Below are positions 17,906-39,905 of a stretch of 43,104 nt of DNA, piece after piece. The translations under genes were made by a program, and so were the position numbers. The stretch lies in NCBI RefSeq assembly GCF_003334385.1, contig NZ_QOWN01000036.1; one strand, given 5' to 3'. Origin of the DNA: Escherichia coli. GTDB lineage: Bacteria; Pseudomonadota; Gammaproteobacteria; Enterobacterales; Enterobacteriaceae. Every line of letters begins with the position of its first letter. Within the stretch, counting starts at the first letter, position 1. The notes under the pieces are model-generated. The model was not told the origin of the DNA, did no database searches, and saw nothing but the letters and a program-made list of their open reading frames with translations.

Positions 17906-18076
17906 CCGTAGGCCTGATAAGACACGTTAAACGTCACATCAGGCATCGCTTGTCGGATGCGGCGCTAGCGCCTTATCCGACCTACATTGGTGGTCCCGTA
18001 GGCCTGATAAGACGCGTCAGCGTCGCATCAGGCTTCAATTGCCGGAGAAGGCGATAATGCCTTATCCGGTCTACAG
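17906..18076. repeat. REP/BIME cluster in the sucB-sucC spacer
   Basis: Multiple gtaggcctgataagacgcg... and cggatgcggcg... / ccttatccg palindromic units within a 274-bp intergenic gap. Confidence 0.6.
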
Positions 18077-19328: not shown

Positions 19329-22130
19329 TTATTCGACGTTCAGCGCGTCATTAACCAGATCTTGTTGCTGTTTCTGGTGAACGGACATATACCCTACCGC
19401 CGGAGAGGCGGAGGCCGGGCGGCCTGCATAACGCAGAGAAGCCCCAAACGGAATCACTTCACGGAAATGATGCTGGCTGCAGTACCATGCGCCCTGGTTG
19501 AGCGGCTCTTCCTGGCACCAGACAAAATCCTTGACGTGAGCAAACTGCTGCAACACTTCCTGCATCGCTTTATGCGGGAACGGGTAGAGTTGCTCGATAC
19601 GCACAATGGCGACATCGTGTTGATTGTTCTTACGACGCTGTTCCAGCAGGTCGTAATAAACCTTACCAGAACACATCACTACGCGCTTCACGCCCTTCGG
19701 ATCAAGCTCGTCGATTTCACCGATGGCTGGCAGGAAGGTGCCGTTCGCCAGTTCTTCGAGGCTGGAAACCGCCAGCGGATGACGCAGCAGGGATTTCGGC
19801 GACATCACGACCAGCGGACGACGCATCCCGCGCAGCGCCTGACGACGCAGCATGTGGTAAACCTGTGCCGGGGTAGACGGTACGCAAACCTGCATGTTTT
19901 GCTCAGCACAAAGTTGCAGATAACGTTCCAGACGCGCGGAGGAGTGCTCCGGCCCCTGCCCTTCGTAACCGTGCGGCAGCAACATCACCAGACCACACAT
20001 CCGGCCCCATTTCTGTTCGCCAGAGGAGATGAACTGGTCGATAACCACCTGCGCACCGTTGGCGAAGTCACCGAACTGCGCTTCCCAGATGGTCAGAGTG
20101 CGTGGTTCTGCGGTGGCATAACCATATTCAAACGCCAGCACTGCTTCTTCAGACAGTACGGAGTCCCAGACACGGAACGCGCCCTGCCCGTTATGGATAT
20201 GTTGCAGCGGCGTGTAAGTGGAACCGTTAGACTGGTTGTGGATCACCGCGTGGCGGTGGAAGAAGGTACCGCGACCGGAGTCTTCACCCGACAGGCGAAC
20301 CGGAATGCCTTCATCAACCAGCGTGGCGTAAGCGAGGTTTTCCGCACCGCCCCAGTCGAACAGTTTCTCACCGGCAGCCATCGCCTGGCGATCGCCATAA
20401 ATCTTGGCAACGCGAGACTGCATTTCAACTGCTTCCGGCACCGTGCTGATGCGTTTCGCCAGCTCCTGCAGGCGCTTCATCTCAACTTTGTTCGGGTACT
20501 CTTCGTCCCATTCGTGGTTGAGGTACGGCGACCAGGTGAAAGAGTGCATGTTCATCGGACGCCACTCTGCCACTACGCAATCGCCAGCATCCAGCGCATC
20601 GCGGTACAGGTTAACCATCTCGGTGGCATCTTCCAGCGTCGCCACTTTTTCCTGCTCCAGCTTGTCAGCGTAGATTTTGCGCGGTGTCGGATGTTTTTTG
20701 ATTTTCTGATACATCAGCGGCTGGGTTGCGCTCGGCTCGTCGGCTTCGTTGTGGCCGTGACGGCGGTAGCACACCAGGTCGATGAAGACATCACGTTTAA
20801 AGGTGTTACGGAAATCGAGCGCCAGACGGGTCACAAAGGCAACGGCTTCCGGATCGTCCGCGTTAACGTGGAAAATCGGGGCCTGAACCATCTTACCGAT
20901 ATCAGTACAGTACGGCGTAGAACGGGCATCCAGCGGATTAGAGGTGGTGAAACCAACCTGGTTGTTGATAACGATACGTACCGTACCGCCAACTTCATAA
21001 CCACGCGCTTTCGACATGTTCAGGGTTTCCTGAACCACGCCCTGCCCGGTCACTGCGGCGTCACCGTGGATGGTGATTGGCAGCACTTTGTTGCTGCTCG
21101 GCTCATCAAGTCTGTCCAGACGGGCACGAACAGAACCGATAACTACCGGGCTTACAATCTCAAGGTGAGACGGGTTAAACGCCAGCGCCAGGTGCACCAG
21201 GCCGCCATCGGTCTGGAAGTCAGACGAGAAGCCCATGTGGTATTTCACGTCACCCGTGCCGAGGTGTTCTTTATGTTTACCGGCGAACTCGTCGAACAAG
21301 TCTTGCGGTTTTTTACCCAGCACGTTCACCAGCACGTTCAGACGACCACGGTGCGCCATCCCGAGAACCACTTCGCGGGTGCCGCTGTTGCCAGCGTGGC
21401 GGATCATCTCTTTAAGCATCGGGATTAACGCGTCACCGCCTTCCAGCGAGAAGCGTTTTGCGCCAGGGAATTTTGCGCCGAGGTAACGTTCAAGACCTTC
21501 AGCGGCGGTCAGTTCGCTTAAGAAGCGTTTTTTCTCTTCGCTATTGAAAGTCGCGCGACCAGACTCGATACGCTGTTGGATCCAGCGTTTTTCTTCGGTG
21601 CTGGTAATGTGCATATACTCGGCACCAATCGGGCCGCAGTAGGTTTGCTTGAGGGCTTCCAGCAGCTCGCCGAGTTTCATGGTTTCTTTGCCGCTGGCAA
21701 ATGAACCGACGTTGAAGGTCTCCTGGAAGTCTGCTTCGGTCAGATCGTGGAAAGACGGATCCAGATCGGCCACTTTATCTTGCTGCCACAGTCCCAGCGG
21801 ATCGAGATTCGCATGCTGGTGACCACGGAAGCGGTATGCGTTAATGAGCTGCAGGACTTTAACCTGCTTCACATTGGTGTCAGGGTCGGAGATCGTTGAA
21901 GAGTAACGTGAAGCGTCTTTCGCCAGGCGGCGGAAATATTCACGCGTTTGAGAGTGGAATTGATCCGGTTTGACTCCCGTACCAGGTAACTGCTGGAACG
22001 TCGAACGCCAGTTAGCGTCAACCGAGTCAGGATCGGTTAAGAAGTCTTCATAGAGCTGTTCTATCCAGCTCTGGTTTGCGCCAGAGAGGTAAGAAGAGTC
22101 CAACCAGGCTTTCAAAGCGCTGTTCTGCAT
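19329..22130 (-). CDS. sucA: 2-oxoglutarate dehydrogenase E1 component
   Basis: 933-aa ORF recognised as SucA ([30 protein letters not shown]...). Confidence 0.95.
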
Positions 22131-22310
22131 CGTGATCCCTTAAGCATCTTTTTTATGCTTACTTCGCCGTGGATACTACCACGCACAGTGATGTGCGTGC
22201 CGGGGTTCACTTGCGAGCTCTTGTCTACGTAGTGGCTCGCGAAGGAACCTTTAAAAACTGTCTTAGTGTCAGGGGCAGTTTTTAAAGATTTCCTGCATTT
22301 CTTTGTTACG

Positions 22311-22428
22311 CCTGATGCGCTGCGCTTATCAGGCCTACGGGTAATGACTTGTAGGCCGGATAAGGCGTTCACGCCGCATCCGGCACTGGTTGCCTGATGC
22401 GACGCTTGCGCGTCTTATCAGGCCTACG
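22311..22428. repeat. REP/BIME cluster in the sdhB-sucA spacer
   Basis: cctgatgcgctgcgcttatcaggcctacg..., ggccggataaggcgttcacgccgcatccggc... and gcctgatgcgacgcttgcgcgtcttatcaggcctacgg palindromic units. Confidence 0.6.
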
Positions 22429-22430
22429 GT

Positions 22431-23147
22431 TTACGCATTACGTTGCAACAACATCGACTTGATATGGCCGATGGCGCGCGTCGGGTTCAGCCCCTTCGGA
22501 CATACACTGACGCAGTTCATGATGCTGTGACAGCGGAATACGCTGAATGCATCACTCAAACCGTCGAGGCGGCTGTCAGTCTCGGTATCACGGCTATCAA
22601 TCAGGAAACGATATGCCGCTAACAAGCCTGCCGGGCCGATAAACTTATCGGGATTCCACCAGAAAGACGGACAAGAGGTTGAACAACATGCGCAGAGAAT
22701 ACATTCATACAGCCCGTCGAGTTTTTCGCGCTGCTCTGGCATCTGTAAATGCTCGCGAGCTGGCGGATTTTGTCCATTATTCAACAGGTAAGGCTTAATT
22801 TTCTCATATTGCGCATAGAATTGTCCCATGTCTACCACCAAATCGCGGATCACCGGTAAACCTGGCAGCGGGCGAATCACAATCTTCTTGCCCGGCTGGT
22901 TGAGTGCCGAAATCGGGGTAATACAGGCCAGACCATTCTTGCCGTTCATGTTCAGACCGTCGGAACCGCACACACCTTCACGGCAGGAGCGGCGGAACGA
23001 CAGGCTGGGATCTTTCTCTTTTAGCTGGATAAGCGCATCCAGCAGCATCATGTCGCGACCTTCATCCGCTTCCAGGGTGTAATCCTGCATACGCGGAGCA
23101 TCATCAACATCCGGGTTATAGCGATAAATTGAAAACTCGAGTCTCAT
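22431..23147 (-). CDS. sdhB: Succinate dehydrogenase iron-sulfur subunit
   Basis: 238-aa ORF with Cys clusters for 2Fe-2S/4Fe-4S/3Fe-4S centres. Confidence 0.95.
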   Translation of the reverse strand: MRLEFSIYRYNPDVDDAPRMQDYTLEADEGRDMMLLDALIQLKEKDPSLSFRRSCREGVCGSDGLNMNGKNGLACITPISALNQPGKKIVIRPLPGLPVIRDLVVDMGQFYAQYEKIKPYLLNNGQNPPAREHLQMPEQREKLDGLYECILCACCSTSCPSFWWNPDKFIGPAGLLAAYRFLIDSRDTETDSRLDGLSDAFSVFRCHSIMNCVSVCPKGLNPTRAIGHIKSMLLQRNA

Positions 23148-39775: not shown

Positions 39776-39905
39776 GCCTGATGCGACGCTTGACGCGTCT
39801 TATCAGGCCTACGTATTTCCTGCAATTTATTGAATTTGCACAAATTTGTAGGCTGGATAAGGCGTTCACGCCGCATCCGGCATCTGGGCTCGATTGCCTG
39901 ACGCG
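39776..39905. repeat. REP/BIME (RIP-like) element in the convergent dtpD-phr spacer
   Basis: gcctgatgcgacgcttgacgcgtcttatcaggcctac and tgtaggctggataaggcgttcacgccgcatccggcat palindromes flanking ctgcaatttattgaatttgc. Confidence 0.6.

Follow-up and report, generated by a model that had tools for sequence, protein, structure and literature searches.

A strain-variable REP cluster and a conserved, structured sucA leader in the sdhB-sucA spacer of Escherichia coli: a likely two-part post-transcriptional control region

The spacer between sdhB and sucA in the window (the whole stretch of 43,104 nucleotides of E. coli DNA that was analyzed) probably acts, in two parts, as a post-transcriptional control region for the sdhCDAB-sucABCD transcript. 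Its first part would be a dispensable, strain-variable BIME of three REPs that starts 3 nt after the sdhB stop codon, and its second part a conserved sucA leader of ~165 nt, predicted to form four hairpins (A to D). The analyses presented here show the structures, how they are conserved and covary, and that the REPs vary, and the RNase III dependence, the pairing with GlnZ, and the internal 3′ end and promoter come from the literature; which hairpin is cleaved, and the helix that would mask the ribosome-binding site, we infer. The feature is real, is ordinary in kind, and has already been characterized at exactly this locus. The relative amounts of two TCA-cycle enzyme complexes are set by the sdh-suc spacer, which is also an entry point of nitrogen status (through GlnZ and Nac) into carbon flux. 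What is added here is a covariation-backed map of the leader, in which constrained parts (hairpins A-D and four invariant segments) are distinguished from parts that are free to vary (the REP cluster, and those loops into which mobile repeats can insert).

Both genes are called on the minus strand, as are all features below unless stated otherwise: sdhB at 22431-23147, with its TAA stop codon at 22431-22433, and sucA at 19329-22130, with its start codon at 22128-22130. The 300-nt spacer thus spans exactly 22131-22430 and has 100% identity to positions 758406-758705 of K-12 MG1655 (window position = 22130 + 758706 - K-12 position), so that experiments performed in K-12 are directly transferable to the window. 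Folding of the whole spacer RNA on the sense strand gives -118.5 kcal/mol (z = -7.8), in agreement with the stable structures that a preliminary description of this DNA had expected RNA folding to reveal. An 86-aa open reading frame called mechanically at 22112-22372 crosses the REPs and was disregarded.

The preliminary description placed REP/BIME units at 22311-22428, directly after sdhB, and a repeat search of the spacer together with a match to the naRNA4 covariance model (88 bits) bears this out, resolving three REPs within 22307-22427. In transcript order, these are REP1 (22391-22427), which holds an internal palindrome, REP2 (22351-22385), with inverted repeats and itself inverted relative to REP1, and REP3 (22307-22338), with an internal palindrome and a direct repeat (-14.5 kcal/mol, z = -3.0). 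Their orientation alternates, REP1/REP2 and REP2/REP3 being mutually inverted; identical direct repeats of 16 nt and 10 nt are shared between the units, and each unit contains internal inverted repeats. The first REP stem begins 3 nt past the sdhB stop codon (window 22428-22433). The cluster has what defines REP/BIME elements in E. coli: imperfect palindromes of ~35 nt matching the consensus, with the GTAGGCC...GATAAG/GCATC signature, extragenic and in alternating orientation right after a stop codon, forming stable predicted RNA hairpins, and with dispersed copies, as the median number of matches to a 451-nt query containing the REPs was 39 per E. coli genome. Nothing about it is unusual, save for its polymorphism between strains (absent, three REPs, or ~8 REPs).

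REP1 and REP2 together are predicted to form a composite hairpin of ~30 bp (22351-22427; -48.9 kcal/mol, z = -7.4), which we consider a candidate 3′-exonuclease barrier and RNase III substrate. REPs act as mRNA 3′ stabilizers and in Rho-dependent attenuation, REP/BIME elements are also associated with binding of gyrase, Pol I or IHF, and where REPs lie within ~15 nt of a stop codon, terminating ribosomes reportedly stall and the expression or translation of the upstream gene is lowered. In the proposed mechanism, the REP1-REP2 duplex in read-through RNA would mark and protect the 3′ end of the sdh message, and it would lie within the region that is removed in an RNase III-dependent manner. In strains that lack the REPs, and in other genera, a simple GC-rich hairpin is found at the same position.

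REP1 and REP2 are covered by the naRNA4 match (RF02564, the nucleoid-associated RNA from the REP325 element) at 22354-22424, with scores of 88 bits for the plus strand and 53 bits for the minus strand. The higher-scoring strand is antisense to the operon. The naRNA4 model essentially describes a REP pair and would match any pair of this kind, and an independent RNA at this site was rejected for this reason. A second REP pair (naRNA4, 61.8 bits) is located at 17911-17982 (minus strand), in the sucB-sucC spacer.

We compared the 80 closest sdhB-sucA junction loci, which come from species-representative genomes of the families Enterobacteriaceae and Erwiniaceae. Spacer length was measured in the 78 of them that contain the sdhB end; it ranges from 201 to 660 nt, and in many genera the lower bound is about 200 nt. 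The short spacers carry a GC-rich hairpin without a U-tract after sdhB, such as GCCGGGGAAAUCCCCCGGC (-17.9 kcal/mol), and in the window the REP cluster takes the place of this hairpin. The same difference is found within E. coli: about a third of the complete genomes (1765 of 5426) have a REP-free spacer of 200 nt with the GC hairpin instead, and the form found in the window is covered at at least 80% in 2286 genomes. A third form, of 550 nt and with tandemly amplified REP pairs, occurs in LF82-like E. coli strains and in E. albertii. Being absent or variable among E. coli genomes, the REP cluster appears to be a polymorphic and dispensable occupant of the position after sdhB. In an alignment of the short spacers, the part adjacent to sdhB is not conserved, whereas the ~165 nt adjacent to sucA can be aligned from Escherichia to Pantoea, Erwinia and Mixta.

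The 550-nt spacers (L003:951-1330 in E. albertii; L083 in E. coli LF82) are built from ~4 tandem copies of a ~98-nt unit containing a REP pair. Each unit ends in AATGCAGAAACC, which resembles the sequence right before hairpin A and suggests amplification by unequal recombination that took in the flank. The longest spacer, 660 nt in Superficieibacter electus (L022:841-1290), contains ~6 tandem repeats of ~84 nt, each with a REP-like palindrome (GTAGGCCCGGTAAGCG...CACCGGGC).

The conserved leader begins, in transcript order, with hairpin A (22243-22294; -18.1 kcal/mol, z = -4.8), whose AU-rich stem of 18 bp has a single bulge and closes a loop of 15 nt. The arms of this AAAAACTG...CAGTTTTT hairpin (as RNA, AAAAACUG/CAGUUUUU) are 15 nt long and 93% complementary (22246-22260/22276-22290), and they hold two of the invariant segments, a (GGAAAUCU) and b (AAGGUUCC). 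This is the aaaactg...cagtttt hairpin of the preliminary description, which had given it an extent of about 22250-22285; it is real, and larger than was then thought. Hairpin B (GCGAGC...GCUCGC, 22213-22240; -9.4 kcal/mol, z = -1.9) follows, and after it comes the nearly invariant segment c, GUGAACCC (22203-22210), for which either the Shine-Dalgarno region or the GGUUC of the hairpin A 3′ arm is the predicted partner. Hairpin C is a perfect 8-bp palindrome (CACGCACA/TGTGCGTG, 22180-22187/22192-22199) with the loop UCAC (-12.9 kcal/mol, z = -3.0); its existence had been correctly noted, at 22184-22203, and its actual position, 22180-22199, is 4 nt lower. When the 170-nt non-REP part of the spacer was shuffled 5000 times, 42 of the shuffled sequences contained a perfect 8-bp hairpin. 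Closest to sucA are the nearly invariant hairpin D (UAAGCAU-AAAAAAG-AUGCUUA, 22141-22161; -5.7 kcal/mol, z = -3.4) and the Shine-Dalgarno region AAGGGAUCAC (segment d, 22132-22141), in which the GGG occupies 22137-22139 and is predicted to pair with segment c. Hairpins B and D, the predicted masking helix and the conservation of the ~165-nt structured leader as a whole had not been described in the earlier account.

Covariation analysis was carried out on an alignment of 52 distinct leaders from 52 enterobacterial species, from which repeats inserted in variable loops had first been trimmed. In these 52 loop-trimmed leaders, 95.2% of the alignment cells are standard pairs. Both sides changed in 16 of the 46 pairs, against 5.3 ± 1.2 in column shuffles (none of 500 reached 16) and 3-8 in slid controls, where partners were moved by 1-3 columns; both the use of the E. 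coli row as the source of the test structure and the trimming of the loops favor the observed counts. The compensatory changes lie in hairpins A, B and C, and hairpin D and the long-range helix E (see below) are nearly invariant. In hairpin C all five apical pairs are compensatory (for example CACGCAUA/UAUGCGUG and CACGUAC/GUACGUG), hairpin B is found for instance as GCGGAC/GUCCGC, and in hairpin A six of the 18 pairs are compensatory. In Pantoea the entire arm of hairpin A is replaced (GCUAAGCG/CGCUUAGC) with retention of the pairing.

The deviations from standard pairing also carry information on the strand. Cells with G.U outnumber those with A.C on the sense strand in hairpin B (28 vs 4) and in hairpin C (51 vs 12), which argues for an RNA on the mRNA strand. 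Hairpin A behaves in the opposite way, with 49 C.A mismatch cells vs 22 G.U, and this hairpin (window 22243-22295) folds slightly better antisense (-22.2 kcal/mol) than sense (-18.1 kcal/mol), so that it would not necessarily act on the mRNA strand.

A short open reading frame of nine codons (MQEIFKNCP; AUG CAG GAA AUC UUU AAA AAC UGC CCC UGA) at 22271-22299 on the minus strand, with its AUG at 22297-22299, overlaps the 5′ arm of hairpin A. We rejected it as a leader peptide because the start is not conserved: other genera have GUG, or a stop codon immediately after the start.

The loops of the leader accept considerable insertions. The arm-to-arm span of hairpin A is 81-204 nt in 54 of the 80 loci, with a mode of 171-180 nt (25 loci), instead of 44-58 nt as in E. 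coli. The inserted sequences (for example L013:1210-1392, L024 and L030; the corresponding loop in the window is 22261-22275) are imperfect palindromes that leave the stem in place, and that we take to resemble ERIC-type elements. The loop of hairpin A is an insertion hot spot, where the insert lengthens the duplex; in Kluyvera, hairpin A forms the base of a 180-nt hairpin (-70.4 kcal/mol, z = -6.3). In three Citrobacter loci (L004, L023 and L048), a repeat of ~84-128 nt separates the GlnZ site from hairpin D (window ~22162-22164), and the GlnZ target is thereby moved to about position -170 or -126 relative to the AUG. These inserts match the 127-nt extra spacer described for Salmonella Typhimurium (PMC9731577). 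Insertions of ~30-130 nt are located only in the hairpin A loop or, in Citrobacter, in the gap between the GlnZ site and hairpin D, and no stem is interrupted.

Between hairpins C and D lies the target of the sRNA GlnZ, UAUCCACGGCGA (22164-22175; positions -45 to -34 relative to the AUG). Within the spacer, the GlnZ seed UUGCCGUGGAAA has its best duplex at 22164-22173 (-18.3 kcal/mol), which consists of 10 consecutive pairs, including one G.U wobble, with the core UCCACGGC at -43 to -36. GlnZ, derived from the glnA 3′UTR, represses sucA by seed pairing to the spacer, as validated by compensatory mutations (PMC9731577; Walling preprint), and a purine-rich 15-nt element beside the ribosome-binding site is required for repression by GlnZ and Hfq (PMC9731577). 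The window has the exact validated target as well as a purine-rich element near the ribosome-binding site, and the latter is probably the A-rich loop of hairpin D. In contrast to these published accounts, which refer only to 'relatively long stem-loop structures' and do not mention hairpins C and D as conserved, covarying structures (PMC9731577; Walling preprint), our map suggests how the site may be organized: hairpin C would flank a single-stranded GlnZ target (predicted unpaired probability ~0.68), and hairpin D would present its A-rich loop beside the Shine-Dalgarno sequence. The target begins 4-6 nt downstream of the 8-bp palindrome, and hairpin C is best read as a structural element framing it. 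The position of hairpin C 4 nt upstream of the GlnZ target, and inside the predicted domain that sequesters the Shine-Dalgarno sequence, points to translational control rather than termination.

Processing of the spacer by RNase III has been documented previously. Three RNase III-specific processing sites in the spacer are attributed to Cunningham and Guest (1998) in later papers (PMC9731577, PMC5371410, PMC6393394), and papers citing the same work report a weak internal suc promoter in the operon. In RNA-seq of an rnc mutant, in which sucA served as a known positive control, the RNase III-dependent read depletion peaks at K-12 position 758515 (PMC5371410). This position corresponds to window position 22321, the apex of REP3, inside the REP annotation. 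In the rnc mutant, SucA decreases and SucB does not (PMC9731577), and without RNase III the repression of SucA by GlnZ is lost (Walling preprint). Furthermore, an internal 3′ end, termed an intrinsic terminator, and a secondary promoter balance the coverage of the two halves of the operon (Conway et al., PMC4161252).

The preliminary description had proposed that processing at the two palindromes (now hairpins A and C) could decouple sdh from suc expression. The general idea holds and was already published for this sequence, but its assignment to the two palindromes is not supported, as the one RNase III signal found with genome coordinates falls in the REP cluster. Two predicted duplexes have the length expected of an RNase III substrate (at least about two helical turns), the ~30-bp REP1-REP2 hairpin and the 18-bp hairpin A. 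The latter, as a long AU-rich stem, would be the best candidate within the leader for cleavage by RNase III, and it is plausibly a substrate. Halfway between the apices of the REP1-REP2 duplex and of hairpin A lies about K-12 position 758507, close to the depletion peak at 758515; excision of a fragment between cuts in both duplexes would fit this. RNase III processing, repression by GlnZ and Hfq, and the weak internal promoter would together allow sucA output to be set separately from that of sdh. The region shares features with RNase III-processed leaders such as those of adhE, pnp and rnc (sucA itself is a listed target), namely long duplexes in an untranslated region, an rnc-dependent loss of reads and the rnc dependence of SucA, but it differs in being intercistronic rather than a primary 5′ UTR.

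In the full leader, the Shine-Dalgarno GGG is predicted to be almost entirely paired (unpaired probability 0.01-0.02; median 0.02 over the 80 loci). A long-range helix E, in which GUGA.CCC pairs with GGG.UCAC, is predicted to mask the ribosome-binding site. GUGAACC has an alternative partner in the GGUUC of the hairpin A 3′ arm, and RNAalifold favors another long-range pairing, between the hairpin A 5′ arm and the Shine-Dalgarno sequence. Changes in helix E and in these alternatives are one-sided (wobble) only, and none is compensatory.

These competing pairings allow an extension of the two-part model that we think unlikely, in which RNase III acts as the trigger of a switch. The segments a (GGAAAUCU), b (AAGGUUCC), c (GUGAACCC) and d (AAGGGAUCAC) would pair in mutually exclusive ways: a:b and c:d in the intact leader, until a cut in hairpin A removes a, b captures c, the Shine-Dalgarno sequence opens and sucA is translated. 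In RNase III-dependent regulation of adhE, cleavage unmasks a sequestered ribosome-binding site, and this type of unmasking is the mechanism that would apply to sucA as a novel case. In line with such a switch, a 5′ end placed inside hairpin A raises the predicted unpaired probability of the GGG from 0.02 to 0.44-0.69, and no rise is seen if b (GGUUCC) is removed too; across the 80 loci, the median rises from 0.02 to 0.20 after the modeled cut, but accessibility exceeds 0.5 in only three of them. The b:c and c:d pairings are each 97-98% pairable across species, and the extreme invariance of a to d suits segments that have two partners each, yet compensatory covariation is absent for b:c, c:d and a:d alike. 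The behavior of the rnc mutant, in which SucA decreases, SucB does not and the effect of GlnZ is lost, would also be expected, whereas the published depletion peak falls in REP3 and the literature consulted documents no cut within hairpin A. That the leader constitutes an uncatalogued cis-regulatory RNA family (outside Rfam, and present in Enterobacteriaceae and Erwiniaceae) that acts as such an RNase III-triggered switch is, in our view, a tentative proposal with the balance against it. If true, sucA would be translated only once the transcript had been split into its sdh and suc halves, and transcripts from the internal promoter might bypass the cleavage step. The switch would give a testable explanation for the RNase III dependence of SucA but not SucB.

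A different view is that the palindromes act as DNA and serve the weak internal suc promoter as operators or promoter elements, with IHF and Nac as candidate proteins; this we regard as very unlikely. Hairpin A is AT-rich and nearly strand-symmetric, and its departures from pairing are more often C.A than G.U; binding of Nac at the sucA promoter is cited in PMC9731577. The replacement of the hairpin A arms in Pantoea, Mixta and Erwinia, where the pairing is kept and the sequence is not, speaks against this view, and so does the richness of hairpins B and C in sense-strand G.U pairs. IHF reportedly represses Psuc. Within the spacer, we found no IHF consensus (allowing at most one mismatch) and no sigma-70 promoter match of at least 9/12; a sigma-70 scan of REP-free spacers was likewise negative. 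The nearest IHF-like site, TATCAAGTCGATG (one mismatch; 22452-22464, minus strand), lies inside the 3′ end of sdhB and is the closest one to the reported IHF-repressed suc promoter; in the window as a whole, the number of IHF-like sites is not above chance.

Slightly less credible still is a leader that senses a metabolic signal, riboswitch-like or through a bound protein, by analogy with the sucA motifs of other proteobacteria. The leader does have multiple covarying hairpins with the Shine-Dalgarno sequence embedded in structure, and it precedes the same gene as the Rfam sucA motifs. Like the sucA RNA motif (RF01070, Burkholderiales) and sucA-II, it is a conserved structured RNA directly upstream of sucA whose pairing involves the ribosome-binding site, but it matches neither in sequence or structure and differs in clade and architecture, so that the analogy is one of position only. 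An Rfam scan with permissive filters at E ≤ 10 matched only the REP model in the spacer, plus one noise match, and the sucA and sucA-II families were absent. Moreover, the loop sequences of the hairpins are variable, insertions of more than 100 nt are tolerated in them, and RNase III and GlnZ/Hfq already account for the conserved single-stranded parts.

Least probable of all is that some polymerases are stopped before sucA by the hairpins, acting as partial intrinsic terminators or attenuators, a role that had been suggested for the two palindromes and that could draw on the internal 3′ end downstream of sdhB, reported as an intrinsic terminator (PMC4161252): a scan for a stem followed by a U-tract found no site on either strand in 21900-22700, nor a canonical terminator in the REP-free spacers of E. 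coli and Pantoea, hairpin A is rich in AU, the sequence after hairpin C is GUAGUAUCC, and the REP or GC hairpin right after sdhB explains the reported 3′ end more simply.

Elsewhere in the window, Rfam models match on the minus strand at 1-282, 1209-1347 and 39805-39847, comprising two tRNAs with an RtT element, the CpoB/ybgF thermometer (142 bits) and the ES036 (CssrF) sRNA model (75 bits).
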